A stretch of 64,000 nucleotides of DNA from Longimicrobiales bacterium. GTDB lineage: Bacteria > Gemmatimonadota > Gemmatimonadetes > Longimicrobiales > Gaopeijiaceae. The notes beneath the pieces were generated by a model. It saw nothing but the letters and a program-made list of their open reading frames with translations. It was not told the DNA's origin and did not search any database. Each line of letters opens with the position of its first letter. Within the stretch, counting starts at the first letter, position 1. The stretch spans positions 736,001 to 800,000 of the forward strand of contig OZ242008.1 of the NCBI GenBank assembly GCA_965204735.1, in the 5' to 3' direction. The translations under genes and the position numbers were made by a program. Of this stretch, positions 7,244 through 25,474 are shown piece after piece.

Positions 7244-7482
7244 CTGGCTCTTCCTGCTTGATTGGAGGTGCCCGGTCCGGCTGCCTTGCCAGTGCTTGAC
7301 ATGCGGGCGCCGCCCGGGCGAAGCTTGCGGAAGCGGCGCATCCTGACTTGGTTGCGGGAGCTGGAGCGGGAGGGCGGCAAGATGGAGAACGTCCGGGCGG
7401 TGCTGCAACCTTCTGTCGGACAACTCGGGCCAGGGAGCATGGAGCGATGAAGGTGGCCGGCCGGCGGAGGCCGTAGAGGCGG

Positions 7483-9063
7483 ATGCGCTACTTCAACACG
7501 TCCGGTCCGGTCGTGGCGGACGACCACTACCACGTCCCGCCCCTCGACCGACTCGACCTTGCCGAGGTCCGGGAGCTGATCGACGACCAGCGGTACTTCG
7601 TGCTTCACGCCCCCCGGCAGACCGGCAAGACGTCGGCCCTGCTGGCGCTCCAGGACCTGCTCAACGCGGAGGGCGGTTGCCGCTGCGTCTACGTCAACGT
7701 CGAAGGCGCCCAGGCGATGCGCGAAGACGTGGAGCGCGCGACTCGGGTCATGCTGGGCCAGATGGCCTTGCGGGCTCGGGACGCGCTTGGCGACGACTTC
7801 TTGTCCGGCGCATGGTCCGGCATCGCCGACGAGTTCCGGGAGGGTGCGCTGGGCGAGGCCCTGTCGCGTTGGGCGGAGGCCGACGAGAGGCCGCTGGTGC
7901 TGCTGATCGACGAGATCGACTCGCTGGTGGGCGACACGCTCCTGTCGGTGCTGCGTCAGCTTCGCGCAGACTATCCCCACCGGCCCGCCAGGTTCCCCCA
8001 GAGCGTGGTCCTGTGCGGTGTCCGGGACGTGCGCGACTACCGCATCTGGTCCAGCTCGGCGAAGACGATGGTCACGGGCGGCAGCGGCTTCAACATCGTG
8101 GCCGAGTCCCTGCGCCTGGCCGACTTCTCCCAGGCCGAGGTGCGCGACCTGCTCGGACAGCACACCGAAGAGACCGGCCAGCCGTTCACCGAAGCCGCGC
8201 TGGACGCGGTCTGGACCCAGACCCAGGGCCAGCCGTGGCTCGTCAACGCCCTGGCCTACGAGACCTGCTTCCGCGGCGACCTGGCCGCCGACCGGTCGCG
8301 ACCCGTGACCGAGGCGGACGTGCTGGATGCCCGCGAGCGGTTGATCCAGCGTCGCGACACCCACCTGGACCAGCTGACCGACAAGCTGCGGGAGGACCGC
8401 GTCCGGCGGGTCGTCGAGCCGCTCCTCGTGGGCGGCGAAGGGTTCGATGCCACGGCCGACGACATCGAGTACGTGCAGGACCTGGGCTTGGTCGCCCGAG
8501 ACGCTCCGCTCCGCTTGGCCAACCCGATCTACGCGGAGGCCGTGCCTCGCCAGCTCACGTGGCCGACCCAGCTCAAGATTCGGGAGGACCCGGCGTGGTA
8601 CGTGGACGCCGACGGCGCGTTGCTGCTGGACAAGCTGCTGGCGCGCTTCCAGGAGTTCTTCCGCGAGAACGCCGAGAGCTGGGTCGAGCGGTTCGACTAC
8701 AAAGAGGCGGGACCGCACCTGCTGCTGCAGGCGTTCTTGCAGCGGGTTGTCAACAGGGGCGGGCGGGTCGAGCGGGAGCACGGGCTGGGCCGAGGGCGCG
8801 CGGACCTGCTGATCCGGTGGCCGGAGGGCGACGAAGCGCGCAGCTACGTGGTCGAGTGCAAGGTTCGCCACGACCGCCGGGGCCTGGAGCGCACCGTGGC
8901 CAAGGGGGTGGAGCAGACGGCGGCCTACATGGACCGCTGCGGGGCCGAAGCGGGGCACCTGGTCGTCTTCGACCGCAGCGACGAGCGCAGCTGGGACGAG
9001 AAGGTCTTCCGCGACGTCCGCACCGCCGAGAGCGGGGCCGAGATCGCCGTGTGGGGGATGTGA
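7483..9063 (+). CDS. AAA ATPase - PD-(D/E)XK nuclease fusion, copy 1 (526 aa)
   Basis: Walker A APRQTGKT, Walker B LLIDEID, GQPWLVN, C-terminal GRADLLI..VVECK. Confidence 0.85.
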   Translation: MRYFNTSGPVVADDHYHVPPLDRLDLAEVRELIDDQRYFVLHAPRQTGKTSALLALQDLLNAEGGCRCVYVNVEGAQAMREDVERATRVMLGQMALRARDALGDDFLSGAWSGIADEFREGALGEALSRWAEADERPLVLLIDEIDSLVGDTLLSVLRQLRADYPHRPARFPQSVVLCGVRDVRDYRIWSSSAKTMVTGGSGFNIVAESLRLADFSQAEVRDLLGQHTEETGQPFTEAALDAVWTQTQGQPWLVNALAYETCFRGDLAADRSRPVTEADVLDARERLIQRRDTHLDQLTDKLREDRVRRVVEPLLVGGEGFDATADDIEYVQDLGLVARDAPLRLANPIYAEAVPRQLTWPTQLKIREDPAWYVDADGALLLDKLLARFQEFFRENAESWVERFDYKEAGPHLLLQAFLQRVVNRGGRVEREHGLGRGRADLLIRWPEGDEARSYVVECKVRHDRRGLERTVAKGVEQTAAYMDRCGAEAGHLVVFDRSDERSWDEKVFRDVRTAESGAEIAVWGM

Positions 9064-10667
9064 TGTCGCCCCCAGACCCGTCGGCGATGCGCCGCTTCAA
9101 CAGATCCGGTCCGGTAGTGGAGGGGCGCCACTACTGCATCGCGCCCCTCGACCGACTCGACCTTGCCGAGGTCCGGGAGCTGATCGACGACCAGCAGTAC
9201 TTCGTGCTTCACGCCCCCCGGCAGACCGGCAAGACGTCGGCCTTGCTGGCGCTCCAGGACCTGCTCAACGCGGAGGGCGGCTGCCGCTGCGTATACGTCA
9301 ACGTCGAAGGCGCCCAGGCGATGCGCGAAGACGTGGAGCGCGCGACTCGGGTCATGCTGGGCCAGATGGCCTTGCGGGCTCGAGACGCGCTTGGCGACGA
9401 CTTCTTGTCCGGCGCATGGTCTGGCATCGCCGACGAGTTCCGCGACGGTGCGCTGGGAGCGGCCCTGACCCTCTGGGCCGAGGCCGACGCAAGGCCGCTG
9501 GTGCTGCTGATCGACGAGATCGACTCGCTGGTGGGCGACACGCTCCTGTCGGTGCTGCGCCAGCTTCGCGCTGGCTACGACATGCGGCCCGTCAGGTTCC
9601 CCCAGAGCGTGATCCTGTGCGGAGTCCGGGACGTGCGCGACTACCGCATCTGGTCCAGCTCGGAGAAGACGATGGTTGCGGGTGGCAGCGCCTTCAACAT
9701 CAAGGCCGAGTCCCTGCGCCTGGGCGACTTCTCCAAGGACGATGTGCACGACCTGCTCGGACAGCACACCGAGGAGACCGGCCAGCTGTTCACCGAAGCC
9801 GCGCTGGACGCGATCTGGACCCAGACCCAGGGCCAGCCGTGGCTGGTCAACGCCTTGGCCTACGAGACGTGCTTTCGCGGCGAGTTGGCCGCCGACCGGT
9901 CGCGACCCGTGACCGAGGCGGACGTGCTGGATGCCCGCGAGCGGTTGATCCAGCGTCGCGACACGCACCTGGACCAGCTGACCGACAAGCTGCGCGAGGA
10001 CCGCGTCCGGCGGGTCGTCGAGCCGCTCCTCGTGGGCGGCGAAGGGTTCGATGCCACGGCCGACGACATCGAGTACGTGCAGGACCTGGGCTTGGTCGCC
10101 CGAGACGCGCCGCTCCGCTTGGCCAACCCGATCTACGCGGAGGTCGTGCCTCGCCAGCTCACGTGGCCGACCCAGCTCAAGATTCGGGAGGACCCGGCGT
10201 GGTACGTGGACGCCGACGGCGCGTTGCTGCTGGACAAGCTGCTGGCGCGCTTCCAGGAGTTCTTCCGCGAGAACGCCGAGAGCTGGGTCGAGCGGTTCGA
10301 CTACAAGGAGGCCGGACCGCACCTGCTGCTGCAGGCGTTCTTGCAGCGGGTCGTCAACAGCGGCGGGCGGGTCGAGCGGGAGCACGGGCTGGGCCGAGGG
10401 CGCGCGGACCTGCTGATCCGGTGGCCGGAGGGCGACGAAGGGCGCAGCTACGTGGTCGAGTGCAAGGTTCGCCACGACCGCCGGGGCCTGGAGCGGACCG
10501 TGGCCGAGGGGGTGGAGCAGACGGCGGCGTACATGGACCGTTGCGGGGCCGAAGCGGGGCACCTGGTCGTCTTCGACCGCAGCGACGAGCGCAGCTGGGA
10601 CGAGAAGGTGTTCCGCGACGTCCGCACCGCCGAGAGCGGGGCCGAGATCGCTGTGTGGGGGATGTGA
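9063..10667 (+). CDS. AAA ATPase - PD-(D/E)XK nuclease fusion, copy 2 (534 aa)
   Basis: TGATG overlap with the copy 1 stop; same motifs. Alternative ATG at 9087. Confidence 0.85.
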   Translation: MSPPDPSAMRRFNRSGPVVEGRHYCIAPLDRLDLAEVRELIDDQQYFVLHAPRQTGKTSALLALQDLLNAEGGCRCVYVNVEGAQAMREDVERATRVMLGQMALRARDALGDDFLSGAWSGIADEFRDGALGAALTLWAEADARPLVLLIDEIDSLVGDTLLSVLRQLRAGYDMRPVRFPQSVILCGVRDVRDYRIWSSSEKTMVAGGSAFNIKAESLRLGDFSKDDVHDLLGQHTEETGQLFTEAALDAIWTQTQGQPWLVNALAYETCFRGELAADRSRPVTEADVLDARERLIQRRDTHLDQLTDKLREDRVRRVVEPLLVGGEGFDATADDIEYVQDLGLVARDAPLRLANPIYAEVVPRQLTWPTQLKIREDPAWYVDADGALLLDKLLARFQEFFRENAESWVERFDYKEAGPHLLLQAFLQRVVNSGGRVEREHGLGRGRADLLIRWPEGDEGRSYVVECKVRHDRRGLERTVAEGVEQTAAYMDRCGAEAGHLVVFDRSDERSWDEKVFRDVRTAESGAEIAVWGM

Positions 10668-12268
10668 TGTCGCCCCCAGGCCCGCCGGCGGTGCGCCGCT
10701 TCAACAGGTCCGGTCCGGTAGTGGAGGGGCGCCACTACTGCATCGCTCCCCTCGACCGACTCGACCTTGCCGAGGTCCGGGAGCTGATCGACGACCAGCA
10801 GTACTTCGTGCTTCACGCCCCCCGGCAGACCGGCAAGACGTCGGCCTTGCTGGCGCTCCAGGACCTGCTCAACGCGGAGGGCGGCTGCCGTTGCGTCTAC
10901 GTCAACGTCGAAGGCGCACAGGCGATGCGCGAAGACGTGGAGCGCGCGACTCGGGTCATACTGAGCCAGATGGCTCGCCAGGCACGGCGAACGGGCGACG
11001 ACTTCCTGACCGGGGCATGGTCTGAGATCGCCGCCGAACACGGCGCTGATGCGCTGGGCGAGGCCCTGTCGCGCTGGGCCGAGGCCGACGAGAGGCCGCT
11101 GGTGCTGCTGATCGACGAGATCGACTCGCTGGTGGGCGACACGCTCCTGTCGGTGCTGCGCCAGCTTCGCGCAGACTATCCCCACCGGCCCGCCAGGTTC
11201 CCCCAGAGCGTGATCCTGTGCGGCGTCCGCGACGTGCGCGACTGTCGCATCTGGTCCAGCTCGGCAAAGACGATGGTCACGGGCGGCAGCGGCTTCAACA
11301 TCGCGGCCGAGTCCCTGCGCTTGGGCGACTTCTCCCGGGACGAGGTGCACGACCTGCTCGGACAGCACACCGAAGAGACCGGCCAGCCGTTCACCGAAGC
11401 CGGGCTGGACACGATCTGGACCCAGACCCAGGGCCAGCCGTGGCTCGTCAACGCCCTGGCCTACGAGACGTGCTTTCGCGGCGAACTAGCGAAGGACCGG
11501 TCCCGCCCAGTGACCGAGGCGGACGTGCTGGACGCCCGCGAGCAGCTGATCCAGCACCGCGACACCCACCTGGACCAGCTGACCGACAAGCTGCGCGAGG
11601 ACCGCGTGTGGCGAGTCGTCGAACCGCTCCTGACCGGCGCCAGCGAGTCCAGCTACACCGCTCGGGACGTGGAGTACGTTCGGGACCTGGGCCTGATCGC
11701 CCACGCCCCCCCGATCCGCATGGCCAACCCCATCTACGCCGAGGTCGTGCCTCGGGAGCTGACTTGGCTGGCCCAGGACGACCTGCCGCACGACCCAGCC
11801 TGGTACGTGGACGCCTCCGGCGCCTTGCGCCTGGGCAAGCTGCTCGAAGCGTTCCAGGAGTTCTACCGCGAGAACTCGGAGCACTGGGTCGAGCGCTACG
11901 GCTTCAAGGAGGCGGGCCCGCAGCTGCTCTTGCAGGCGTTCCTGCAGCGGGTCGTCAACAGCGGCGGACGGATCGAGCGGGAGTACGCGCTGGGCGGTGG
12001 TCGCACCGACCTGCTGATCGTGTGGCCGCAGAGCGGGCGCGCGAGCAAGCATGTGGTCGAATGCAAGGTTCGCCACGAGCGCCGGGGCCGGGAGCGGACC
12101 GTGGCCGAAGGCGTGGAGCAGACGGCGGCCTACATGGACCGTTGCGGGGCCGAGGCCGGGCACCTGGTCGTCTTCGACCGCAGCGACGAGCGCAGCTGGG
12201 ACGAGAAGGTGTTCCGCGACGTCCGCACCGCCGAGAGCGGGGCCGAGATCGCAGTGTGGGGGATGTGA
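10667..12268 (+). CDS. AAA ATPase - PD-(D/E)XK nuclease fusion, copy 3 (533 aa)
   Basis: TGATG overlap; same motifs; nuclease variant GRTDLLI..VVECK. Confidence 0.85.
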   Translation: MSPPGPPAVRRFNRSGPVVEGRHYCIAPLDRLDLAEVRELIDDQQYFVLHAPRQTGKTSALLALQDLLNAEGGCRCVYVNVEGAQAMREDVERATRVILSQMARQARRTGDDFLTGAWSEIAAEHGADALGEALSRWAEADERPLVLLIDEIDSLVGDTLLSVLRQLRADYPHRPARFPQSVILCGVRDVRDCRIWSSSAKTMVTGGSGFNIAAESLRLGDFSRDEVHDLLGQHTEETGQPFTEAGLDTIWTQTQGQPWLVNALAYETCFRGELAKDRSRPVTEADVLDAREQLIQHRDTHLDQLTDKLREDRVWRVVEPLLTGASESSYTARDVEYVRDLGLIAHAPPIRMANPIYAEVVPRELTWLAQDDLPHDPAWYVDASGALRLGKLLEAFQEFYRENSEHWVERYGFKEAGPQLLLQAFLQRVVNSGGRIEREYALGGGRTDLLIVWPQSGRASKHVVECKVRHERRGRERTVAEGVEQTAAYMDRCGAEAGHLVVFDRSDERSWDEKVFRDVRTAESGAEIAVWGM

Positions 12269-13872
12269 TGTCGCCCCCAGGCCCGTCGGCGATGCGCTAC
12301 TTCAACACGTCCGGTCCAGTAGTGGCGGACGACCACTACCATGTCCCGCCCCTCTCTCGGGTCGACTTGGCCGAACTCCGTCTGTTGATCGACCAGAAGC
12401 GCTACTTCGTGCTTCACGCCCCCCGGCAGACCGGCAAGACGTCGGCCCTGCTTGCGCTCCAGGACCTGCTCAACGCGGAAGGCGGCTACCGCTGCGTCTA
12501 CGTCAACGTCGAAGGCGCACAGGCGATGCGCGAAGACGTGGAGCGCGCGACTCGGGTCATACTGGGCCAGCTGGCCTTGCGGGATCGAGACGCGCTTGGC
12601 GACGACTTCTTGTCCGGCGCATGGTCTGGCATCGCCGACGAGTTCCGCGACGGTGCGCTGGGAGCGGCCCTGACCCTCTGGGCCGAGGCCGACGCAAGGC
12701 CGCTGGTGCTGCTGATCGACGAGATCGACTCGCTGGTGGGCGACACGCTCCTGTCGGTGCTGCGCCAGCTTCGCGCCGGCTACGACATGCGGCCCGTCAG
12801 GTTCCCCCAGAGCGTGATCCTGTGCGGAGTCCGGGACGTGCGCGACTACCGCATCTGGTCCAGCTCGGAGAAGACGATGGTCACGGGCGGCAGCGCCTTC
12901 AACATCAAGGCCGAGTCCCTGCGCCTGGGCGACTTCTCCAAGGACGAGGTGCGCGACCTGCTCGGACAGCACACCGAAGAGACCGGCCAGCCGTTCACCG
13001 AAGCCGGGCTGGACGCGATCTGGACCCAGACCCAGGGCCAGCCGTGGCTCGTCAACGCCCTGGCCTACGAGACGTGCTTTCGCGGCGAACTAGCGAAGGA
13101 CCGGTCCCGCCCAGTGACCGAGGCGGACGTGCTGGACGCCCGCGATCAGCTGATCCAGCGCCGCGACACCCACCTGGACCAGCTGACCGACAAGCTGCGC
13201 GAGGACCGCGTGTGGCGAGTCGTCGAACCGCTCCTGACCGGCGCCAGCGAGTCCAGCTACACCGCTCGGGACGTGGAGTACGTTCGGGACCTGGGCCTGA
13301 TCGCCCACGCCCCCCCGATCCGCATGGCCAACCCCATCTACGCCGAGGTCGTGCCTCGGGAGCTGACTTGGCTGGCCCAGGACGACCTTCCCCACGACCC
13401 AGCCTGGTACGTGGACGCCTCCGGCGCCTTGCGCCTGGGCAAGCTGCTCGAAGCGTTCCAGGAGTTCTACCGCGAGAACTCGGAGCACTGGGTCGAGCGC
13501 TACGGCTTCAAGGAGGCGGGCCCGCAGCTGCTCTTGCAGGCGTTCCTGCAGCGGGTCGTCAACAGCGGCGGACGGATCGAGCGGGAGTACGCGCTGGGCG
13601 GTGGTCGCACCGACCTGCTGATCGTGTGGCCGCAGAGCGGGCGCGCGAGCAAGCATGTGGTCGAATGCAAGGTTCGCCACGAGCGCCGGGGCCGGGAGCG
13701 GACCGTGGCCGAAGGCGTGGAGCAGACGGCGGCCTACATGGACCGTTGCGGGGCCGAGGCCGGGCACCTGGTCGTCTTCGACCGCAGCGACGAGCGCAGC
13801 TGGGACGAGAAGGTCTTCCGCGACGCCCGCACAGCCGAGAACGGCGCCGAGATCGCAGTGTGGGGAGCGTGA
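12268..13872 (+). CDS. AAA ATPase - PD-(D/E)XK nuclease fusion, copy 4 (534 aa)
   Basis: TGATG overlap; same motifs; its stop overlaps the GTG of the next gene. Confidence 0.85.
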   Translation: MSPPGPSAMRYFNTSGPVVADDHYHVPPLSRVDLAELRLLIDQKRYFVLHAPRQTGKTSALLALQDLLNAEGGYRCVYVNVEGAQAMREDVERATRVILGQLALRDRDALGDDFLSGAWSGIADEFRDGALGAALTLWAEADARPLVLLIDEIDSLVGDTLLSVLRQLRAGYDMRPVRFPQSVILCGVRDVRDYRIWSSSEKTMVTGGSAFNIKAESLRLGDFSKDEVRDLLGQHTEETGQPFTEAGLDAIWTQTQGQPWLVNALAYETCFRGELAKDRSRPVTEADVLDARDQLIQRRDTHLDQLTDKLREDRVWRVVEPLLTGASESSYTARDVEYVRDLGLIAHAPPIRMANPIYAEVVPRELTWLAQDDLPHDPAWYVDASGALRLGKLLEAFQEFYRENSEHWVERYGFKEAGPQLLLQAFLQRVVNSGGRIEREYALGGGRTDLLIVWPQSGRASKHVVECKVRHERRGRERTVAEGVEQTAAYMDRCGAEAGHLVVFDRSDERSWDEKVFRDARTAENGAEIAVWGA

Positions 13873-16800
13873 CGGACGTCCCCCGCCCCGGAATGCTGGC
13901 CACCGTCCGCAACCGGCGCGGCGTGGTGGCGGCGGTGGAACCCCACGACGGCGAGCGCGGGCGGGTCCACCTGGTCCACTTGGAGTACGCGGACCATCAG
14001 TCGCCCCGAGAGGAGCGCCTTCTGTGGGAGATCGAAGGCAGGCCGTCTCTCCTGGAGCCCAACGCCCTGCCCAATCCGGCCCGTTCGCCCATGGCCGCGC
14101 CCGACTTCGACGCCATGCTTCGGGCGGCTCGGTGGACGGCCCTCTCGCCCTACCTCGACCCGTCCGGCGACGGCCGCCCGGCCCAGGAGCCCCTGGCCAG
14201 CCCCTTCCACGGCGGCGTCCGCATCGAGAACTACCAGCTGGTTCCTCTCTTGAAGGCGTTGCGCATGCCCCGGGTCAACCTGCTCATCGCCGACGACGTG
14301 GGGCTGGGCAAGACCGTGGAAGCCGGGTTGGTCCTGTCCGAGCTGCTGCTGCGCCGCCGCATCCGCCGGGTGCTGGTGCTGACGCCCGCGTCGCTCCGCC
14401 GTCAGTGGAGCGAGGAGATGCAGGAGAAGTTTTCGTTGCCCTTCGAGATCGTGGACCGGCTGAGCACGGAGAAGCTGCGCCGCCGCCAAGGCATGGACGC
14501 CAACCCCTGGCGCTCCTTCAGCCGCGTCGTGGCGTCGTACCACTACCTGCGCCAGCCGGACGTGCTGGAGCACTTCCGGGCGGCCTGCGACCACCAGACT
14601 CGCGAAGGCTCTCCACACCTGCCATGGGACCTGCTGATCGTCGACGAGTGCCACAACCTTATGCCGTCCCCGTTCGGCGAAGACAGCGAGCTGTGCAAGA
14701 TGCTGCGCTTTGTGGCCCCGCGCTTCGAGCACCGGCTCTTCCTGTCGGCCACGCCCCACAACGGCCACACCCGCTCGTTCACCGGGCTGCTGGAGATGCT
14801 GGACCCGGTCCGCTTCTCGCGCACCGGCGAGATGACGCCCGCCATGCGCGGACGCATCGACGACGTGGTGATTCGCCGGCTCAAGCGCGACATCAACGCG
14901 ACCGCGACCGGCGAGGGGACCGGCCCCCGCTTCTGCACCCGGTGCCCGCCCAAGGCCCTGACGCTCGCCTTCAGCCCGCACGAGACCCGCCTTTCTGCCG
15001 CCTTCGACGCCTTTCGCAGCGCCATCCGGGAGCAAGTCGCGGAAGGAGGCAAGCGCCGTCGCCGCGCCGGTGCGTTCGCGGTCGAGATCTTCGGCAAGCG
15101 GCTGCTCTCCTGCCCGACCGCCTTCGCCGAGTCGTGGAGCCGCGCCAAGCAGGGGTTCGAGGACCCGCAGGCCGCCGGCGACCGACAGCTTGCGACGGCG
15201 GAACGCTCGCTGCGCCAAGACACGGGCGACGATCGCGAGGCCCAGCAGCGCCAGGCCACGGCGTCGACGGTCGTAGGGGCGTGGCTGAAGAACTTCGCGG
15301 GCGACTTGACGGCCGAGGTCCATGGGATTGAAGACGCTCTTGCCCGGCTGGAGTTCGACTTGGACGCCGGCGCTGCGCCCGTCGTGTCCCAAACGCCCAT
15401 TGCCGACGCCCGCTTCGACCGGCTCTTGAAGCTCGTCGAGGGCCGTCTGCGCGGCGAGGGCCGGTTCCGCGGTGGCGAGCGGCTGGTCGTCTTCACGGAG
15501 TACAAGACGACCCTGGATTATGTGGCCCGCCGCCTGCGGGAGCGCTACGGAGACGAACGTATCCTGACCCTGTTCGGCGCGGGCGGCCCCGGCGGGATGG
15601 ACGAGTCGGGACGCGAGCACGTCAAGGCGGCGTTCAACGACCGCGTGTCCCCCGTGCGCATCCTCGTGGCCACCGACGCCGCGTCGGAGGGGCTCAACCT
15701 GCACCGCACGGCCCGCTACCTGCTCCACTGGGACTGTCCCTGGAACCCGTCTCGGCTGGAGCAGCGGAACGGCCGCCTGGACCGCTACGGCCAAGCCCGC
15801 GACGTGACCGTCCACCACTTCGTGAGCGACACGGACCCGGACTTGCGCTTTCTGGACCACGTGGTTCGCAAGGCCGACGACATCCGGGAGGACCTGGGGT
15901 CGGTCAACGAGGTCTTCGACCGTGCCGTTCACCGCCGCTTGGTTCGGGGCGAGGACGCCGCCGCCGTGCAGGCCGGGCTGGACTTGGAAGTGGAGGCGGC
16001 GCGAGGCCGTGCCAGCCTTGGCGGCGACGGAGCCGCCGACCGGACGTCCAACGGGACATCCGATGGGACATCAAACGGCGAAAATCGGGACATTTCGCTG
16101 GACATTTTAGCCGCCGAAATCGATTTCGACCCCGAAGCGGTCCGGGACACGCTGGAGGCGGCGATGGCTGACACCGCCGGGCGACCGCAGCTCGAGCCCG
16201 CCGCGCGCGCCCACGACACGGGGAGCAGCAGCAACGGCCGCGACGGCCTTCATCGCCTTGTGAACCCCGGCTTGCCCGGCTGGAGCCAAGTCGTGGACGA
16301 GTCCGTCCGCCGCCCCGGACTCGGCGGGGCGCAGGGACCGGTTCCCGCACTGGCTTTCAGTCCAAAGCCGTTCATCAAGAAGCGGGGCGACTTGAGCGTC
16401 TTTCGGCCGCGCAAGGATGCGTTGTTCGTCCACTTGGCCCACCCGATCATGCGTCATGCCTTGGGCGTGCTGGCGAAGCGGCGATACCCGGGCGCCGGGA
16501 GCGAGGCGTCGCGCTGGACCGCGCGTTACGGCGGCGTGCCGGAAGGAGCCGAGGCGGCGGTTCTGCTCAGCGTGGAGGAGATCGGCGTGAACAAGCTGCG
16601 GGAGACGTTCCACCGCTGGGTGCGGACGGTCGTGTTCCCGATGCGCGACGGCGAACTTGGATCGCCCCTTCCCCACGCGCCCGCCCGGTCGCTCCTGGGC
16701 GCAAGCGAGTGCGAGGACGCGGCTCGCCGGGAACAGGCCGCCGAGATCCTGGAAGCCGCCGCGCCGGCGCTCAAGCAGTGGATGCGCGATCACAGGCGCG

Positions 16801-17207
16801 CGCTCGGCGAGCGCTTGGCCGCCCAGCTCGAAGACGACGGCGCCGCCGCCCGGAAGCGCGAGCGCGACAGCTACCGACAGCGCCTGGCCGAAGTTTCCGA
16901 ACTGATCACACGCACCACGATGGACAGGTTGGGCCGTGAAATCGAGCGACTCAAGGGGCAGCGCGACCAAGGACAGCTCTTCAACGAAGCCGAGCGCTTG
17001 GCCGAGTTGGAGCGATCTATCGAGGAATGGGAAGAAGAGCTGAAGCGCCGTCGCTTCCATCACGACGAGATTCGCGACCAGCTCCAGCGAGAGCGCGACC
17101 GCACAGTGAAACGGCTGTTTCCCAAGCGCTTCGCCTTGGCGGGGACCGCCCAACTCTTTCCGGTGGCCGTGGAAGTGCGCCTTCCGGCAACGCGGCGTCG
17201 TCCGTGA
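13869..17207 (+). CDS. drmD: DrmD-like SNF2 helicase (1112 aa)
   Basis: GTG start overlapping the upstream TGA; LLIADDVGLGKT, DECH, LSATPHNG, ATDAASEGLNL, WNPSRLEQRNGRLDRYGQ; C-terminal coiled coil. Confidence 0.8.
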   Translation: MTDVPRPGMLATVRNRRGVVAAVEPHDGERGRVHLVHLEYADHQSPREERLLWEIEGRPSLLEPNALPNPARSPMAAPDFDAMLRAARWTALSPYLDPSGDGRPAQEPLASPFHGGVRIENYQLVPLLKALRMPRVNLLIADDVGLGKTVEAGLVLSELLLRRRIRRVLVLTPASLRRQWSEEMQEKFSLPFEIVDRLSTEKLRRRQGMDANPWRSFSRVVASYHYLRQPDVLEHFRAACDHQTREGSPHLPWDLLIVDECHNLMPSPFGEDSELCKMLRFVAPRFEHRLFLSATPHNGHTRSFTGLLEMLDPVRFSRTGEMTPAMRGRIDDVVIRRLKRDINATATGEGTGPRFCTRCPPKALTLAFSPHETRLSAAFDAFRSAIREQVAEGGKRRRRAGAFAVEIFGKRLLSCPTAFAESWSRAKQGFEDPQAAGDRQLATAERSLRQDTGDDREAQQRQATASTVVGAWLKNFAGDLTAEVHGIEDALARLEFDLDAGAAPVVSQTPIADARFDRLLKLVEGRLRGEGRFRGGERLVVFTEYKTTLDYVARRLRERYGDERILTLFGAGGPGGMDESGREHVKAAFNDRVSPVRILVATDAASEGLNLHRTARYLLHWDCPWNPSRLEQRNGRLDRYGQARDVTVHHFVSDTDPDLRFLDHVVRKADDIREDLGSVNEVFDRAVHRRLVRGEDAAAVQAGLDLEVEAARGRASLGGDGAADRTSNGTSDGTSNGENRDISLDILAAEIDFDPEAVRDTLEAAMADTAGRPQLEPAARAHDTGSSSNGRDGLHRLVNPGLPGWSQVVDESVRRPGLGGAQGPVPALAFSPKPFIKKRGDLSVFRPRKDALFVHLAHPIMRHALGVLAKRRYPGAGSEASRWTARYGGVPEGAEAAVLLSVEEIGVNKLRETFHRWVRTVVFPMRDGELGSPLPHAPARSLLGASECEDAARREQAAEILEAAAPALKQWMRDHRRALGERLAAQLEDDGAAARKRERDSYRQRLAEVSELITRTTMDRLGREIERLKGQRDQGQLFNEAERLAELERSIEEWEEELKRRRFHHDEIRDQLQRERDRTVKRLFPKRFALAGTAQLFPVAVEVRLPATRRRP

Positions 17208-20200
17208 CGACCGCCTCGCGCGCTGGTCAAGAGGTCCCCGGCTGGCGAGACCTGCGTCACGGCGGGCTCCTGCTGGACGGCCAACGTCTGGCCGACTTGG
17301 CGCCGCACACGCCCGACCCCTTGGACGGCTGGACCGAGCATCTGCTGCGGCGCCGCGCCACCGACCTGCGCCGCCACGCCACGGACGGAGCCCCGGCGTT
17401 CGCGAAGTTCGTGCTGGAGGAGGTGTGCGGGTTCGACGCCGGCACGGGCGCGTGGACCCGTGGCGCCAAGGTCTCGCCCGAGTGGAGTCGTCGAGCCCCG
17501 ACCGGAGAGGTCGTCAAGCCGCGCCAGCTGTGGGAGGGTCTCGGGGGCGGACGTCTGCCGGTGTTCATGGAACCCGGACCGCGCGTCGGGATCGGCAAGG
17601 GCCGCCGAACGGTCAGCCGGGTGCTCGGATGGCTTCGCGCCGGCAACGACCACTTGGCCCTGATCACCAACGGCAAGCAGTGGCGACTCCTCTTCGCCGG
17701 GTTGGACTTCGAGGCGTGGTGCGAGTGGGACATGGACCTGTGGTTCCAGGACGGCAAGCCCGCGCCCCAGGTGGACGCGCTCCGGACGCTGTTGCAGCCC
17801 AAGCTCTGGACTCCCGCGTCAAAGGACGCCGCCTCGCCTCTGCTCCAAGCGATTCGGGACACGCGCAAGGGACAGGCCGAGCTCTCGGAGACGCTGGGCG
17901 AGCGCGTGCGGGAAGCCGTCGAGGTCCTGATCCAGGGCCACGGAGAGGCGCTCAAGGAGCAGTGCTCCGACGTGGACCCCGCCGACATCTACCGGGCCGC
18001 CTGCCGAGTCGCGATGCGCCTCGTGGTGATCCTCTTCGCCGAGGCCCGGGACCTGTTGCCGAGGGACAACCCCGTCTACCACGCCAGCTACGGCCTCAAC
18101 GGCCTGATGGAGCGGCTGCAGTCGGCGGCCGGCGGCCATGCCCTGTCCCGCCGCTTCAGCGCATGGCCCCAGGTGCAGGCCCTCTTCACCTTGGTGCACG
18201 ACGGCTCCCACCTTCCCCAGATGCCGGTCAAGGACTACGGCGGCGAGCTCTTCAAGCCCGGCAGCGCGGAGTCGGCCGACGGCCTCTCCCGAGCCTTGGC
18301 GGTGTTCGAGACCGCCTGCTTGAAGCACGACGTACTGCCGGACGACGACGTTCGGCGCATGCTGGAGCGGATGACGCTCACGCGGGTCCGAATCCGCCAG
18401 GGCCGGGGCGGCACATGGGTCACCGTGCCCGTGGACTTCTCGGACCTGTCCTCCGACTACATCGGCATACTGTACGAAGGCTTGCTGGACTACGAGCTCA
18501 AGACGTCGCCGCCCGGCGAGCCCGTCATCTTCCTGGCGGCGGGCCACTACCCGGCATTGCCGTTGTCGCGCCTGGAGGCGATGGACGACAAGGCGATCAA
18601 GGCGCTGTTCAGCAACCTGAAGAAGGATGTTGCGACGGACGACGACGGACCGGAGGAGTCGGAGGGCCAAGCCGTTGCCAAAGGCGAGGCGAACGAAGCC
18701 GAAGGCGCCGCCGGGCCACTCGGCGACCCCAGCGAGGCTTCGCCGGACGGCGCCGACCCGCGATTTGCCAACCGCACCCGCGCCGAGAAGTGGGCGCGGA
18801 GGGCCGCGCACGTGGCTGGACTGGTCAAGAAACCCCGTGGCAAGCTCACCCCGGAGTGCCGACTGAAGGCCGAGGACGACTTGGCCCGAAAGGCCCGCAA
18901 GCTGGTCGCTCGCGTCGTGTTGCCCGGCGAGTGGTACTTGGTGCGGTGGGGCGGCACCCGAAAGGGGTCGGGCAGCTTCTACACGCGACCCGGCTTGGTC
19001 GTGCCCACGGTGCAGCGCACGTTGCGGCCTTTGGCCTACGACCCTCCGCTCGGCAAGGACGGCGAACCCGACCGAGACGCTCCTGCCGCAAAGTGGACGC
19101 CCAAGCGCCCCGAGCAGATCCTTGAACTGAAGGTGTGCGACCCGGCCTGTGGTTCGGGCGCGTTCGTGCTGTCGGCTTTGCGCTTCCTGACCAACGCGCT
19201 CTTCGCTTCTCTTCAGCGCCACGGACGCATCGAGCCGGACGGGGAGCGCACGCTGATTCGGTTGCTGGGCGCGCCGACCGAACACGAGCCGCACACCGAG
19301 CGTTTGGGCGACGAGATGATCCCCTGTCCGCAGGACCATGACGACTTCGAGCCCCGTCTGCGGGCCGTGCTGCGCCGCCACGTGGTGGAGCGCTGCATCT
19401 ACGCCGTGGACATCGACCCCTTGGCCGTCGAGCTCTGCCGCCTGTCGCTGTGGATCGAGACCATGGACCGGGGCCTGCCCTTCGGCTTCTTGGATCACAA
19501 GGTCAAGTGCGGCAACTCCCTCGTGGGCGCGTGGCTCGACCAGTTCGCCCACTACCCGGTCATGGCCTGGAAGAACCGCGAAGGCGGTGACAAGAACCAC
19601 GGCAACGGCATCCACTTCAAGAAGGGCGCCCGGACGAAAGCGATCAAGGCGTTCGTGAAGGACCGGTTGACGCCGGACTTGGCCTCGTTCCTCCGCGACC
19701 CCGACCTCTTCCTCGACGACCACCTGAAGCGCCACGACAACGCCCACCGCAGCGCGCTGGCCGTTCTGGAGAAAATGCACGCCCTGCCCGTGCAAGACGC
19801 GACGGAAAGGGCGCGGCTCTACCGCGACGAATTCGTGGGCTCGTCGGAGTGGTTGGCACTCAAGGAGGCGATGGACCTGTGGTGCGCCTGTTGGTTCTGG
19901 CCCGCCGACGACATCGCGTGCGCACCGTTGCCCTTGAGCTTCGCCGATCCGCCCCAAGAGACACGAGAGATCGCACGGCGCCTATCCGCCAAGATCCGTT
20001 TTTTCCACTGGGAGCTAGAGTTTCCGGATGTGTTCTGGGAAGAGGGCTCTGGCTTCAACGCGGTCCTCGGGAACCCCCCGTGGGACACCCGTCAGCCCAA
20101 CTCTAAAGAGTACTTTTCGAACATCGATCCAATCTATAGCTCCTACCCAAAACAGGAAGCATTGAGACGCCAAAGGGAATTTTTTTGTTGCTACGTCACA

Positions 20201-22297
20201 GAGCAACAATGGCTTGACTACACTGCCAGTTTTGCAAACGAATCACACTATATGAAATGCGTCTCGGATCCTTTTGGCGATTTCGCCAAGATCGTCAAGA
20301 AATCATCAATAAGATACAACAGTCATGCATGCACTCCACATCCGTATGTACACAGAGGTACAGGAAAGGCATACACTTACAAGTTGTTCTTGGAATACGC
20401 GCATGCCTTGTGTCGGACTAGCGGCAGGATCGGACTCATTGTACCATCGGGGGTTTATTCCGATAAAGGCACTAGTGCGCTCAGAGACTTGTTCTTGTCC
20501 TGTTGCCAATGGGAATGGCTGTTCGGATTGGAAAACCGAGATCGTATTTTTCCAATTTCAAGCAATTACAAGTTCAATCCCGTCATCATTGAGAAGGGTG
20601 GTTCTACTCGTGCGATCCGCACTGCCTTTATGCGTCGGAAGCTTGATGATTGGGAGGAGGCCGAAAGGATCGTAACCCAGTACTCCTACCAGCAGATCGA
20701 AAAATTCAATCCAAAGAGCCAAGCACTTTTGGAAATTCAGTCTAAACGTGACCTTGACATACTAGAGACGATGTCCGCCAGTGGTTGCCCCCTTGGCGAT
20801 GGCGGTGGAGTTGCCCCGGTTCGTGGTCCAGTAGAATCGGCGTGGCGATTTAGATATGCTACTGAGTTTAACATGACTAGCGATTCCAAGTTGTTTCCCT
20901 TAGTCCACCACTGGGAGGCGAAGAGGTACAGGCCCGACGAGTACAGTCGGTGGTTACACGGCGAATGGCTGCCCATCCACGAGTTGTGGGCGACAATGGG
21001 CATTGACCATTCTCATTCCCCTTCTCCACATCGGGATCGGAGCTTACGGTGTGCCCAGCCTCCATACGACATCTTGCCCATTCCGAGGGCCAAGGTGCCC
21101 CCCGGCATAATCCTGTCTCGCACGGGAGATGCTTGGATTCATGAGGATCAAGTGCAGGGCGTGGCACTGCCACTTATCGAAGGTAAGATGATGTATGTTG
21201 GTACATGGGCCGCGAGTGGCCTTCAATTCGACTCGACTGACCACCGGATTGATATCACCCCGAAGTACATGATCGATTCCCGTCACATTCGGAACGCTAG
21301 CGGACCGAAGCCGACGGGTAGGATAGCATTTCGACTTATCTCACGCAGTACAAATGAACGCACTGTCGTCGCCTCTGTAATTCCCAGATGGTACCCCTGC
21401 GCAAACTCGCTGGGGGTCTTGAATGTAGATCACCGTCTCGGTATTACGGACCTCTTGGAGCTCAGTGCCTATATGTCAAGCATTGTACTTGACTGGTCGG
21501 TTCGCCAGCGGATGGCGGGAGCTAATCTGAACTGGCATATTGTAGAATCCGTTAGCGTGCCCTCACCCAAATCTCTGTCCGGCGAGCTTGTTGCAAAATT
21601 CGCCAGCCATATGCTGTCAGGCATTCAGTTTGCGGCGGAATGGCTGTGTCTTGTGCATGACGTGCATCGTCCACAACCGTTTCTGGGCACTCTTCATGAA
21701 CGCACGCGCGTTTCTGTCATAGCTGATGTTGTGACAGCCGCTGTAATGGGATACTCGGAAAACGACGTTCGGCATGTCTTGGACGGATGTGATCTTCCTA
21801 GAGAAGCAATAGACAGTCGGGCGAGGAAGAAAGTACTGTCCAGAAAAGGATTCTGGCGTGTGGATCAGAGTCGACACCCCGAATGTCGTCGCACTGTTCT
21901 AACACTTGTGGCGTTTAGAGACTTGCAGTCCAGAATCAATAGTAGTGCGAATCAAGATGAAGGCATCCGGGCGTGGTTGAACCAGAACGACGGCGAAGGT
22001 TGGCGCATTCCCGAGGTCATTCGCCTAGCGGACTACGGTCTCGGAAATGACGGACGCGCCGAACGTCTGCAGCCAGTCGCCAGCAGTCTTGGTCCCAGAT
22101 TCTACAACTGGCAGATTGCCCAGGGCACCGAGGAGGCGTGGCAAGAATGTCACCTGCACGCTCGGAACCTACTCGGAAGGGAGGAGTATGCTAGATTTCT
22201 GAGGGACTTAGTAGCTCGTTGTCTTCAAGAAGGTTACACTGATATCAGTCGTTTGTACAACGACTACACGCTTAGCTTGGTCCGTGACCCGTCATGA
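17204..22297 (+). CDS. Large N6-adenine DNA methyltransferase (DrmMI / Eco57I / type IIG-like), 1697 aa
   Basis: GTGA overlap; GILYEGLL, RKGSGSFYT, motif I DPACGSGAF, motif IV GNPPW, FFHWELEFPDVF; TRD-like C-terminal half. Confidence 0.85.
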   Translation: MTTASRAGQEVPGWRDLRHGGLLLDGQRLADLAPHTPDPLDGWTEHLLRRRATDLRRHATDGAPAFAKFVLEEVCGFDAGTGAWTRGAKVSPEWSRRAPTGEVVKPRQLWEGLGGGRLPVFMEPGPRVGIGKGRRTVSRVLGWLRAGNDHLALITNGKQWRLLFAGLDFEAWCEWDMDLWFQDGKPAPQVDALRTLLQPKLWTPASKDAASPLLQAIRDTRKGQAELSETLGERVREAVEVLIQGHGEALKEQCSDVDPADIYRAACRVAMRLVVILFAEARDLLPRDNPVYHASYGLNGLMERLQSAAGGHALSRRFSAWPQVQALFTLVHDGSHLPQMPVKDYGGELFKPGSAESADGLSRALAVFETACLKHDVLPDDDVRRMLERMTLTRVRIRQGRGGTWVTVPVDFSDLSSDYIGILYEGLLDYELKTSPPGEPVIFLAAGHYPALPLSRLEAMDDKAIKALFSNLKKDVATDDDGPEESEGQAVAKGEANEAEGAAGPLGDPSEASPDGADPRFANRTRAEKWARRAAHVAGLVKKPRGKLTPECRLKAEDDLARKARKLVARVVLPGEWYLVRWGGTRKGSGSFYTRPGLVVPTVQRTLRPLAYDPPLGKDGEPDRDAPAAKWTPKRPEQILELKVCDPACGSGAFVLSALRFLTNALFASLQRHGRIEPDGERTLIRLLGAPTEHEPHTERLGDEMIPCPQDHDDFEPRLRAVLRRHVVERCIYAVDIDPLAVELCRLSLWIETMDRGLPFGFLDHKVKCGNSLVGAWLDQFAHYPVMAWKNREGGDKNHGNGIHFKKGARTKAIKAFVKDRLTPDLASFLRDPDLFLDDHLKRHDNAHRSALAVLEKMHALPVQDATERARLYRDEFVGSSEWLALKEAMDLWCACWFWPADDIACAPLPLSFADPPQETREIARRLSAKIRFFHWELEFPDVFWEEGSGFNAVLGNPPWDTRQPNSKEYFSNIDPIYSSYPKQEALRRQREFFCCYVTEQQWLDYTASFANESHYMKCVSDPFGDFAKIVKKSSIRYNSHACTPHPYVHRGTGKAYTYKLFLEYAHALCRTSGRIGLIVPSGVYSDKGTSALRDLFLSCCQWEWLFGLENRDRIFPISSNYKFNPVIIEKGGSTRAIRTAFMRRKLDDWEEAERIVTQYSYQQIEKFNPKSQALLEIQSKRDLDILETMSASGCPLGDGGGVAPVRGPVESAWRFRYATEFNMTSDSKLFPLVHHWEAKRYRPDEYSRWLHGEWLPIHELWATMGIDHSHSPSPHRDRSLRCAQPPYDILPIPRAKVPPGIILSRTGDAWIHEDQVQGVALPLIEGKMMYVGTWAASGLQFDSTDHRIDITPKYMIDSRHIRNASGPKPTGRIAFRLISRSTNERTVVASVIPRWYPCANSLGVLNVDHRLGITDLLELSAYMSSIVLDWSVRQRMAGANLNWHIVESVSVPSPKSLSGELVAKFASHMLSGIQFAAEWLCLVHDVHRPQPFLGTLHERTRVSVIADVVTAAVMGYSENDVRHVLDGCDLPREAIDSRARKKVLSRKGFWRVDQSRHPECRRTVLTLVAFRDLQSRINSSANQDEGIRAWLNQNDGEGWRIPEVIRLADYGLGNDGRAERLQPVASSLGPRFYNWQIAQGTEEAWQECHLHARNLLGREEYARFLRDLVARCLQEGYTDISRLYNDYTLSLVRDPS

Positions 22298-24383: not shown

Positions 24384-24614
24384 CTATTCGCCGCGCTGCT
24401 CAAAGACCTGCCGTCCTAGCCCCGAGTGGCGGATTATCGCACCCAGGGTTCCTTGGGCGACTTGGCGGTGGTTAGGGACTACGACCGTGGTTGTTCCCTC
24501 GCCGGCCTGCCGTTGCATAACGATGTGGCTGCCACGCCGCCGGGCCTCCAGGAAGCCGTGACGTTCAAGAATTCGGCAGACCTCGCGTGCAGAAAATACC
24601 CCCAGCCTACCCAA
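24384..24614 (-). CDS. hicA: HicA family toxin
   Basis: SAREVCRILERHGF..RRGSHIVM..VVPNH..GTLGAIIRHSGL; TTG start overlapping the hicB stop. Confidence 0.9.
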   Translation of the reverse strand: MGRLGVFSAREVCRILERHGFLEARRRGSHIVMQRQAGEGTTTVVVPNHRQVAQGTLGAIIRHSGLGRQVFEQRGE

Positions 24615-24828
24615 CGGCGACTTCGACGTCGGTAACGTAGAACTCCGGTCGAACCCTTGCCATCTTCTCGGCGGGCGACGCGCATTCGATGAACAGCTCG
24701 ACGGCTTCCTTGAGATTGTCTCGAGCTTCTTGAATGGTGTGTCCTTGCGTAACCACGTCGAAGTGTGGACAGGTCGCGACGTACAGGTCGCCCTCGCGTT
24801 CGATGATTGCGGTCAGCGTTCTCGTCAC
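24607..24828 (-). CDS. hicB: Short HicB family antitoxin (73 aa)
   Basis: AIIEREGDLYVATCP..TQGHTIQEARDNLKEAVELF; AGGAGG RBS before GTG at 24828. Confidence 0.9.
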   Translation of the reverse strand: MTRTLTAIIEREGDLYVATCPHFDVVTQGHTIQEARDNLKEAVELFIECASPAEKMARVRPEFYVTDVEVAVG

Positions 24829-25105
24829 CTGCGTCCTCCTTGGTATCCGATTGTCCGGGGGCTTGCACGCTCGTAGTAACGTACCGTAGCTCCCAGTGGC
24901 TCCAAAGTCAAGTCCGTCTGCTCCAGTCGCGGCCAGAGAAGGCAGCGGTTCAAGGCGGACGATGACCAAGCTACCCCGTTGTCACGGCCTCCTCGCCGAC
25001 CGCCAGCGCTGTTTGACGGGAGCGCATGAGAGGGCGCCTAGCGCGCCGGGTCTGGTGGTCCGCATTTCCGACTCGACCTTCTCCCCGCGCTTGGTCAATT
25101 CTCAC

Positions 25106-25474
25106 TCAGAGTTCCTCGGGCACCTCTTCCAGCCATGACATGACTCGGTCGAGTTCCTCTCGGCTGTGCTCCAGGAAGCTTCCTTCCTTGCTCTCCTCGC
25201 TCAACGTGCGGCTGACGTAGTACCCGACGCTGCCATCCTCTTCGGTGCCGATCTCGACCCTGCCGTACCCGCTGCGCCAGATGATGCAGATCTCCCACGC
25301 CTCGTCGGCGTAGACTTCATCAGGCCGCTTCCATTTGTCGCGCCATCCCAGCAACGTTGCGATTCGGCCCCTGTTGACCTCGATCTGAGGCATGGCCCCT
25401 CCCTTGACCCGGGCTGCCCTCAAGGTGTCGGCGTCGATCGCGTCCAGGATCCGTTCCCCGTCCAGCTCTTCCAC
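25106..25474 (-). CDS. Hypothetical acidic protein (122 aa)
   Basis: Natural-looking composition; AGGAG about 10 nt before the GTG; no family recognised. Confidence 0.5.
   Translation of the reverse strand: MEELDGERILDAIDADTLRAARVKGGAMPQIEVNRGRIATLLGWRDKWKRPDEVYADEAWEICIIWRSGYGRVEIGTEEDGSVGYYVSRTLSEESKEGSFLEHSREELDRVMSWLEEVPEEL

Follow-up and report, generated by a model that had tools for sequence, protein, structure and literature searches.

A tandem array of four paralogous genes occupies positions 7483-13872 of a 64,000-nucleotide stretch of DNA (the window) that covers positions 736001-800000 of the single-contig, 4.14-Mb genome of a Longimicrobiales bacterium (contig OZ242008.1). The four genes, T1 to T4, are each predicted to encode an ATPase joined to a nuclease, and they are mosaics of shared blocks. 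Judged by the distribution of their variable sites, recombination between copies is the sole reasonable cause of this mosaic. We consider it likely that the array has grown and shrunk by unequal crossing-over and became mosaic by gene conversion within a large multi-copy family, the functional proposals made below included. A first-pass annotation had described four intact tandem ATPase-nuclease paralogs here, with which the open reading frames, domains and folds agree.

Array layout and mosaic pattern

The four intact open reading frames lie head to tail on the + strand:

7483..9063, + strand: T1, first copy (526 aa), defined by open reading frame and translation; blocks Na, B3a, B4a, Ca
9063..10667, + strand, conserved body from 9087: T2, second copy (534 aa); blocks Nb, B3a, B4b, Ca
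10667..12268, + strand, body from 10691: T3, third copy (533 aa); blocks Nb, B3b, B4a, Cb
12268..13872, + strand, body from 12292: T4, fourth copy (534 aa); blocks Na with B2b, B3a, B4b, Cb

The units recur with periods of 1604, 1601 and 1604 nt, and DNA identity between pairs ranges from 86.7 to 94.5% in a window with a G+C content of 70%. One codon is deleted within B3 of T3, and T4 has a tail of its own that ends in WGA. T2, T3 and T4 can each start at an ATG that overlaps the preceding stop codon by one base (TGATG), which puts eight extra residues ahead of the conserved N-terminus; since T3 has GTG at the inner-Met position (10691), the upstream start is favoured. The array was not reported by Tandem Repeats Finder, whose maximum period is 500.

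In the four-way DNA alignment, 125 sites group T1 with T2 against T3 with T4 (aabb), 21 sites group T1 with T3 (abab) and 16 sites group T1 with T4 (abba), and sites private to T3 or to T4 also form runs. The three incompatible patterns occupy separate contiguous stretches without interspersion. All three possible two-against-two partitions therefore exist as blocks, as had been read from peptide strings in the first-pass annotation, and every quoted string is present in the copies named. The blocks and the invariant positions among them, numbered on T1, are as follows:

7489..7542 (aa 3-20), + strand: B1, N-terminal block, 1+4 against 2+3; abba sites, columns 90-138
7546..7593 (aa 22-37), + strand: B2, T4 unlike the other three; aaab run, columns 147-194
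7624..7632, + strand: Walker A G48-K49-T50, invariant in 30/30 sequences
7747..7854 (aa 89-124), + strand: B3, T3 unlike the other three; aaba run, columns 357-445
7855..8148 (aa 125-222), + strand: B4 and B5, variable ATPase core, 1+3 against 2+4; abab run, columns 455-732
8283..8952, + strand: C-terminal half (C-half), 1+2 against 3+4; 125 aabb sites, columns 884-1553
8704-8706 (E408), 8803-8805 (D441), 8854-8856 (E458) and 8860-8862 (K460), + strand: catalytic residues, in both C-half classes

The equivalents of B1 in T2, T3 and T4 lie 1604, 3208 and 4809 nt further on. Counted in codons, the 1+4 pattern spans 3-19, the T3-only run 92-121, the 1+3 pattern 124-217 and the 1+2 pattern 267-490, the last with its highest density at aa 305-470 (8395-8892). 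B4/B5 enclose the invariant Walker B segment, with D143 at 7909-7911. Boundaries between blocks sit in conserved stretches, consistent with the proposal that constant blocks served as crossover sites. Along the array the core types read a b a b and the C-half types a a b b, and each of the four combinations of core and nuclease occurs exactly once, as previously noted.

Along the 161 informative sites of the codon alignment, the pattern classes follow in the order C x14, A x2, B x20, C, A x123, C. The pattern switches 5 times, compared with a mean of 59.8 and a minimum of 44 in shuffled orders, and 0 of 10000 shuffles reached 5. A PHI-type incompatibility test, a breakpoint check suggested by the annotation, gave a score of 0.096 for T1-T4 against 0.374 +/- 0.0085 under permutation, and a score of 0.304 against 0.421 when three dispersed copies of the same genome (D5-D7, below) were added (0/2000 permutations in either case). 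Together with the conflicting trees described below, these results sustain the view that no single duplication tree explains the array and that recombination or gene conversion does.

Family copies in the genome, its relatives and the wider pool

Beyond the array, the genome holds further members of the family: three more full-length copies, D5, D6 and D7 (68-73% aa identity to T1), and one fragment. D5-D7 sit singly among housekeeping genes. The Cb class of T3 and T4 is close to D5 and D6 (83-96% DNA identity in 120-nt windows), and the Ca class of T1 and T2 is not. D7 (L012:9086-10840) lies between the arginyl-tRNA synthetase and methylmalonyl-CoA mutase genes, at a site that measures 1755 bp here versus 40 bp in a congener (G001). 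The borders of this insertion, compared with G001 (L118), carry no direct or inverted repeat of at least 8 nt and no target-site duplication. Another congener (G003) has 1430 bp of other sequence at the D7 site. YhgA-like genes (Pfam Transposase_31) were seen near D7 (L012:16187-17392, + strand) and in the window at 38410-39462 (- strand), 25 kb past the array; the YhgA-like family consists of recombination-promoting PD-(D/E)xK nucleases.

The family is present in 5 of 41 genomes, the source genome (G000) included: in the source and all three of its relatives searched in genus g1 and in the one genome of genus g6 (1/1), and in 0/36 of the others. The three relatives differ in their holdings, with about 25 or more copies in G002, including two tandem triplets, two triplets in G003 and mostly broken pieces in G001. 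The tandem triplets elsewhere in G002 and G003 stand among housekeeping genes (RF-1/PrmC, ClpB, TonB-receptor/SusD, DinB).

A sister array is found in G002 (L029, C2:168000-187900), where three copies, H1-H3, precede the ortholog (95% aa identity) of the DrmD-like gene that follows T4. Upstream of H1-H3 and on the minus strand lies a 24-codon family stub with a T1-type N-terminus, which continues into unrelated codons and then a stop; judged by its sequence, it is the remnant of a deleted first copy. H1-H3 all have the Cb C-half and the Nb N-terminus. The ATPase core of H1 is closest to D6 (80-90%), and H3 joins the supposedly private block of T3 and the tail of T4 to a T3-like body. Over most of the N-half, H2 and H3 are 95-100% identical to each other and 88-92% identical to the window copies, which points to concerted evolution by homogenisation within the species, and the hybrid H3 together with copy loss in G002 bears the signature of deletion by unequal crossover. 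The check for other copy numbers and combinations in relatives was thus productive. An array fixed across strains had been named as an outcome that would count against a shuffled repertoire; copy number and block combinations differ in G002, a comparison at the level of a sister species.

At the three junctions between window copies, the N-terminal type matches the C-half type of the preceding copy in 3/3 cases (Ca followed by Nb twice, Cb by Na once), so that the three partitions might reduce to two independent segments. This reduction, with the C-half travelling with the next N-terminus, is contradicted by the G002 array, in which Cb is followed by Nb twice.

The same blocks recur in other arrangements among database homologs. 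P0005 combines the N-terminal blocks of T4, the B3 of T3 and the core of T1 with a Ca-class C-half; P0020 pairs this front half with a Cb-class one, and both lie on one 49751-nt contig. P0006 and P0024 are two different mosaic copies on one 21357-nt contig. The blocks called private to copies 3 and 4 are private within the window and recur outside it, in H3, P0005-P0007, P0020, P0021 and P0024: the B3 version of T3 is shared with H3, P0005, P0006, P0020, P0021 and P0024, and the B2 version of T4 is the common one in dispersed copies and many homologs. With typing thresholds that we set ourselves (identity of 70% or higher to a single reference allele, with a margin above 8 points), 25 of 119 database homologs could be typed at four blocks, and they displayed 7 of the 16 possible combinations. 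Of 10 block pairs, 8 had all four gametes. B3 is linked to B4, ba (16) and ab (10) being the sole combinations seen, and the aa of T1 is unique in the sample. Maximum-likelihood trees built from 27 sequences divide the C-half into Ca (support 100/99) and Cb (93/84), and sister pairs in the ATPase part, P0013/P0047 (99/94) and P0014/P0051 (98/91), straddle this split, indicating two old C-terminal classes in free recombination with the ATPase types.

A search of a representative library, in which each representative stands for one 50%-identity cluster, returned 5397 proteins at E<=1e-3 and 996 at E<=1e-30, mostly of the same length. Its top match, P0128 (993 aa), matches T1 over two stretches, the better being residues 465-992, and looks like two family units in one reading frame. 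In a collection of species representatives, 78 family loci were kept (49-79% identity), with record titles from Latescibacterota, Vicinamibacterales, Spirochaetia, Bryobacterales, Gammaproteobacteria, Chloroflexota, Desulfobacterales and Methanothrix; the closest, L034 (79%), is a metagenome-assembled genome (MAG) of Longimicrobiales. Within 6 kb, 65/78 loci hold a single copy and 13/78 two or more. L096 and L101 (Bryobacterales MAG) have five and three copies that do not abut and are spaced about 3.3-3.7 kb apart, which suggests that another short gene or spacer is repeated with the copies. In L054 (Latescibacterota MAG), the family gene at 6001-7584 lies between the genes for the large and small subunits of an aconitase-family enzyme. 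Horizontal spread of the family would account for its patchy distribution combined with high similarity across phyla.

Predicted fold, variable blocks and selection

Sequence searches placed T1 among P-loop ATPases. Pfam gave AAA_22 at 3e-8, with AAA_35 and PDDEXK_9 under their cut-offs, and among 30 diverse family members AAA_22 matched 30/30, AAA_35 26/30 and ATPase_2 12/30. NCBIfam returned for T1 one chance-level match alone (17.8 bits versus a cut-off of 227), a PDB sequence search with T1 found no match, and a family profile matched in the PDB only P-loop stretches of RecA, RFC and Vps4. A cluster look-up of five NCBI homologs gave no protein names, and no source names close homologs; look-alike clusters in a protein-language atlas carry the automatic names 'ATP-binding protein', 'ORC1/DEAH AAA+ ATPase domain-containing protein' and 'AAA-like domain-containing protein'. 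Residues F4, G8, G48-K49-T50, D143, Q159, F215, G249 and N347 are invariant in the 30 members.

The AlphaFold model of T1 (pLDDT 90, pTM 0.89) has the core, lid and winged helix of an AAA+ protein, with the Walker A GKT and the acidic residue of Walker B. Its best Foldseek matches are the archaeal ATPases PABY2304 (2qen) and SSO1545 (2fna), followed by ORC/Cdc6, RFC and MuB, and the top matches (2qen, 2fna, ORC2, Cdc6) have E values of 2e-8 to 1e-6. Matches to the winged-helix part were SmtB-type repressors and the C-terminal end of 2qen. Modelled alone (pLDDT 77), the C-terminal 226 residues form helix 110-123, strands 128-131, 142-148 and 151-162, helix 165-186 and strand 190-197, the alpha-beta-beta-beta-alpha-beta core of PD-(D/E)xK enzymes. 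VIA-align matched this model with CinB (Z 8.5, rmsd 3.2, 124 residues aligned), BamHI (7.8), McrC (7.4), CdiA-CT (7.3) and EcoRV (7.2), and further with HamA, Card1, Can2, Hjc and Cas4; Z scores of 7-8 alone are middling by the program's own note, and the nuclease call is carried by the consistency of the list, in which most of the top 35 rows are PD-(D/E)xK nucleases, and by the motif. The latter consists of an acidic residue in strand 2, (D/E)xK in strand 3 and a helix glutamate. E408, D441, E458 and K460 are invariant in 31/31 aligned C-terminal regions and kept in T1-T4 and D5-D7, in both C-half classes. From these models, each protein is predicted to be an AAA+ domain resembling ORC and archaeal ATPases, followed by a winged helix and a C-terminal PD-(D/E)xK nuclease domain.

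Mapped on the T1 model, B1 and B2 lie ahead of strand 1. B3 falls within a set of three helices that separates strand 2 (67-72) from the Walker B strand (138-143), a place with a single helix in a minimal AAA+ core; in initiator-clade ATPases, an insert that contacts DNA occupies the equivalent place. B4 and B5 lie on either side of the Walker B segment, a beta-hairpin (187-198) being part of them, and the C-half block covers the winged helix, the helical linker and the sheet and core of the nuclease. The loop between D441 and E458 reads WPEGDEARS in one C-half class and WPQSGRASK in the other, and it is the most length-variable part of the alignment in the wider family.

We compared dN/dS between copies from Nei-Gojobori counts, as the annotation had proposed for variable and constant blocks. 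Constant stretches gave dN/dS 0-0.2 (dS 0.11-0.36), B3 0.52-0.64 (dS 0.45-0.50), B4 0.56-1.02 (dS 0.12-0.21), the C-half 0.49-0.61 (dS 0.29-0.51) and the 18-codon N-terminal block 1.05-1.58 (dS 0.22-0.33). Values were thus raised in the variable blocks (0.5-0.6 versus 0-0.2 in constant ones) and stayed below 1. Of the variable blocks, the largest two (B3 and the C-half) are older, as seen from their higher dS, and less constrained than the constant stretches; the dS of B4 lies within the range of the constant stretches. Values above 1 in the N-terminal block (two pairs, 1.05 and 1.58) come from 11.5 non-synonymous versus 2.5-3.5 synonymous changes, too few to weigh, the 1.02 of B4 between T3 and T4 from tiny counts, and a value of 3.0 in B5 between T1 and T4 from 9 non-synonymous changes versus 1 synonymous. 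Whole genes gave 0.27-0.57, indicating purifying selection.

Probable operon context, related systems and competing explanations

Three genes follow T4 in the same direction, and a further group comes directly after them:

13869..17207, + strand: DrmD-like SNF2 helicase (1112 aa); PADLOC DrmD 3.2e-195; Pfam SNF2-rel_dom and Helicase_C
17204..22297, + strand: type IIG-like/DrmMI-like N6-adenine methyltransferase (1697 aa); PADLOC REase_MTase_IIG 1216.7 bits, DrmMI 1.9e-121; Eco57I domain
22294..24264, + strand: Schlafen AlbA_2, HATPase_c_4 and TPR protein (656 aa); starts with an ATGA overlap and ends the operon of overlapping genes
24384-32524, directly after the operon: HicA toxin gene with an overlapping upstream partner (HicA/HicB-like), SocA/Panacea gene and DruE-like helicase

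The stop codon of T4 overlaps the GTG start of the DrmD-like gene (GTGA). A promoter and terminator scan found no promoter-like site inside the array and a single terminator-like site, on the opposite strand (1 versus 2.1 expected). From these junctions and their context, T1-T4 and the three downstream genes look like one operon, in which domain and PADLOC scans found no recombinase gene, in line with the annotation's remark that no dedicated recombinase is visible. Upstream of the array lies an M28 peptidase gene here, versus genes for enoyl-CoA hydratase, 3-hydroxyacyl-CoA dehydrogenase and thiolase in G002, and this difference suggests that the array and the DrmD, methyltransferase and Schlafen genes moved as a unit. 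The Schlafen-type gene is 95.6% identical in DNA to that of the sister species. In the methyltransferase gene, similarity to the sister species breaks at 20130 and resumes at 22286; this part (20130-22286) has 50-53% G+C versus about 70% around it, and the two proteins, almost the same up to about residue 957, differ much more beyond it. The C-terminal part of the enzyme looks like a swapped target-recognition part. The DruE-like helicase (26558-32524, 1988 aa) has MZB and S24 peptidase domains and scores 1.4e-106 as DruE and just 3e-13 as DrmA. Further along, at 56387-60962, the window also holds three consecutive amine-oxidase/FAD-type genes (494, 536 and 495 aa) with the same Pfam profile, which are tandem paralogs.

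By its gene content the locus is a putative defence island that is non-canonical for DISARM. The genes after the array resemble DISARM class 1 in that DrmD is the best PADLOC match and DrmMI is among the best. As far as the definition is set out in PMC9252829, PADLOC requires for class 1 all five core genes, DrmD, DrmMI, DrmA, DrmB and DrmC. DrmA, DrmB (DUF1998) and DrmC (PLD) were not found at the locus: the sole MZB/DUF1998 protein in the window scores as DruE and weakly as DrmA, and PF13091 (PLD, DrmC-type) has no match in the window, the nearest being at genome position 845344. In addition, the methyltransferase scores far higher as type IIG (1216.7 bits), and the defined system has no ATPase-nuclease. 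The Hma system, which in the component descriptions of PMC8565338 and PMC11232893 comprises HmaA as helicase, HmaB as methyltransferase and HmaC as ATPase, likewise combines an SNF2-type helicase, a large methyltransferase and an ORC-like AAA+ ATPase, and the DrmD-like protein matches the HmaA model at 3.3e-59. However, T1-T4 match no HmaC model, and in those descriptions HmaC is a DUF499 ATPase listed with no such nuclease, the nuclease of Hma sits on HmaA, and HmaB is a DUF1156 enzyme, whereas the methyltransferase here has an Eco57I domain. The locus is accordingly not classed as Hma.

The closest published parallel in behaviour is the DUF1703 family (PF09820 and PF08011) of Cardinium cCpun, whose 25 paralogs 'readily recombine' by RDP4 and PHI in the account given in PMC6387759. 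According to that account, DUF1703 proteins also have an N-terminal AAA-type ATPase and a C-terminal PD-(D/E)xK nuclease, and their lineage-specific expansion, intragenic recombination and suggested horizontal origin are shared features (PMC6387759). The window family has the same architecture, multiple copies and recombining paralogs. T1 has no PF09820 match and scores 18.7 bits with PF08011 versus a cut-off of 25.5, and each model matches 8/30 family members at E<=0.01; we therefore treat the window family as a distant DUF1703 relative of the same architecture, and not as a member. The Cardinium paralogs are described as far more divergent (mean 39% aa identity) and predicted to be secreted (PMC6387759), whereas the copies here form a tight, coupled array at the head of a defence-type operon. 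PABY2304 (2qen) and SSO1545 (2fna), of PF01637, resemble the T1 model (Foldseek E 2.4e-8 and 3.6e-8, target TM 0.63 and 0.59) and, like ORC/Cdc6, share its AAA+ core, lid and winged helix, but these proteins have no nuclease domain and sequence identity is 11-15%. Tandem gene families can evolve in concert by gene conversion and unequal crossing-over. The present array is like them in its blocks of near-identity between neighbours, its change in copy number, its hybrid units and its homogenisation (H2/H3, and the C-halves of T1/T2 and T3/T4), and differs in that homogenisation is incomplete, with two old C-terminal classes persisting together in a heterogeneous array.

On the reading we favour, T1-T4 are a tandem array drawn from a very large family of stand-alone ATPase-nuclease proteins. 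The array would expand and contract by unequal crossing-over between 1.6-kb units, and its members would repeatedly swap tracts by gene conversion, among themselves and with other copies of the family. Conserved segments would act as crossover sites simply by supplying the identity that recombination needs. The blocks would be old alleles reassorted throughout the population, with two long-separated C-half classes that keep the catalytic residues, and the two-against-two grouping in every possible way would be one snapshot of this reassortment, with no dedicated shuffling machine. Predicted from sequences and models, the proteins may act as ATP-dependent nucleases on foreign DNA, probably co-expressed in this lineage with the DrmD-like helicase and the type IIG/DrmMI-like methyltransferase within a defence island, and the helical insert, winged helix and D441-E458 loop may set target preference. 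The occurrence of the same mosaic across a very large, mostly solitary family, together with the published DUF1703 case as far as PMC6387759 describes it, argues for the normal dynamics of multi-copy genes. The locus is a further example of known behaviour, in an uncharacterised and very widespread family.

Several results weigh against parts of this reading. Regarding gene conversion, windowed comparison with D5-D7 found no tract of T1-T4 near-identical to a dispersed copy of the same genome, and in G002 the paralog nearest to the D6-like core of H1 shares no more than 89% identity with it; these comparisons therefore give no support to recent ectopic conversion from dispersed copies. The variable blocks have raised yet sub-neutral dN/dS, below 1, and so do not demonstrate positive selection or selection for diversity. 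Regarding a defence role, none of the PADLOC models matched T1-T4 (E<=0.01 or E<=0.001), and the neighbours of family members (110 proteins scanned of 112 chosen, two having been dropped for a size limit) are mostly metabolic or housekeeping, with no recurrent partner gene; a minority comprised N6_N4 methylase, RES, BrxC/D, DUF1156, McrBC, DUF4143, Uma2, one integrase and one transposase. A DrmD relative within 6 kb was found at 0/78 other family loci and a weak methyltransferase match at 1/78, which makes the link of the array to DrmD and the methyltransferase lineage-specific. A metagenome scan with DrmD found a single distant locus with a 59%-identical DrmD-methyltransferase pair, and neither the 2 kb upstream of this pair nor the rest of the 15-kb locus holds a family gene, which makes the pair the conserved module and the array something added in this lineage. 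Regarding the assembly, public contigs from four runs that fall on 7300-14100 are, among the records listed, pieces of 116-970 nt, mostly of 116-428 nt, and none spans the array; one further contig record (21759 nt) merely touches the 3' edge. Copy number and phasing are thus neither confirmed nor denied by public contigs.

The last point bears on whether the mosaic could be an artefact, with reads of several strains or copies stitched into chimeric units. Identical runs of up to 422 nt (T3/T4), 192 nt (T2/T4), 162 nt (T1/T2) and 143 nt (T2/T3) and the short public contigs would favour such stitching, and in run X12 a low-depth contig (3.8 versus several hundred) that joins T3 12028 to T1 8847 through 23 other letters hints at other alleles in the sample. 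This junction, at the variable loop beside the active site, may represent another allele or paralog. The long identical runs lie inside shared blocks and not across boundaries, and would not alone create false combinations. The genome is one contig, the four reading frames are unbroken and meet at exact TGATG junctions, a sister genome assembled independently has the same kind of array, and metagenome contigs carry two mosaic copies each (P0005 with P0020, P0006 with P0024); an artefact is hardly credible. The first-pass annotation had instead read the array as a repertoire of sensor and nuclease variants, a reading that is not borne out as one of a selected repertoire, given dN/dS of 0.5-0.6 in variable blocks and the same mosaic in a mostly solitary family. 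In its strongest form it would be a purpose-built combinatorial immune repertoire, in which the array is an expression site, dispersed copies and fragments are donor cassettes and conversion makes new specificities, after the model of antigenic-variation cassettes; the paralogs may mix in hetero-oligomeric AAA+ rings, and the array may guard or arm the DrmD-methyltransferase system. The single occurrence of each core and C-half combination, the recurrence of block alleles in other combinations in relatives, the higher dN/dS of variable than of constant blocks, the location of variable parts in extra helices of the ATPase, the winged helix and the loop beside the active site, the translational coupling to defence genes in two species and the three dispersed copies and fragment would all fit such a device. 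Nevertheless, with no near-identical donor tract in the genome, dN/dS below 1 in all sizeable blocks, tandem triplets surrounded by housekeeping genes and devoid of a defence partner, 65/78 loci that have one copy alone within 6 kb, and no recombinase or conversion-initiating element in the operon, we regard it as very improbable. A broader version has only a slim chance of being right: the array would be an analogue of a combinatorial immune-receptor locus, in which target-contacting modules are re-dealt by conversion from a pool in the genome and population, balancing selection maintains two nuclease classes, hetero-oligomeric rings are possible, and the proteins serve as the sensing or cutting arm of a reduced DrmD/type IIG system.

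It is also conceivable, though we think it unlikely, that the family is a selfish gene, driven by its nuclease or hitch-hiking, that spreads itself with no benefit to the host, the array being a local amplification, its mosaic neutral and its adjacency to DrmD accidental. Single copies between housekeeping genes (D5-D7, and L054 between the aconitase-family subunit genes), the clean presence or absence of D7 (1755 bp versus 40 bp in G001), the many broken copies of G001 beside the about 25 or more of G002, and a patchy occurrence in 5/41 genomes combined with 60-68% identity to copies in other phyla are what such an element would leave. But neither a target-site duplication nor terminal repeats mark the D7 site, the copies are in general not accompanied by a transposase or integrase, whole genes are under purifying selection (dN/dS 0.27-0.57), catalytic and Walker residues are invariant, and the array has all four copies intact and in translational coupling with downstream genes.

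The significance of the locus lies partly in the family itself, which is huge, occurs in many bacterial phyla and some archaea, and is absent from the defence-system catalogue searched (PADLOC). The locus is a natural experiment, with four intact copies that differ in defined modules within one operon and a sister array of different composition, and its position at the head of a defence operon makes it a convenient test case. If the proteins are selfish, it would be an example of selfish genes invading a defence operon. If they are defence nucleases, the block map would indicate where their specificity determinants may be sought, and the locus would illustrate how ordinary recombination between paralogs, with no dedicated device, can diversify immune genes.

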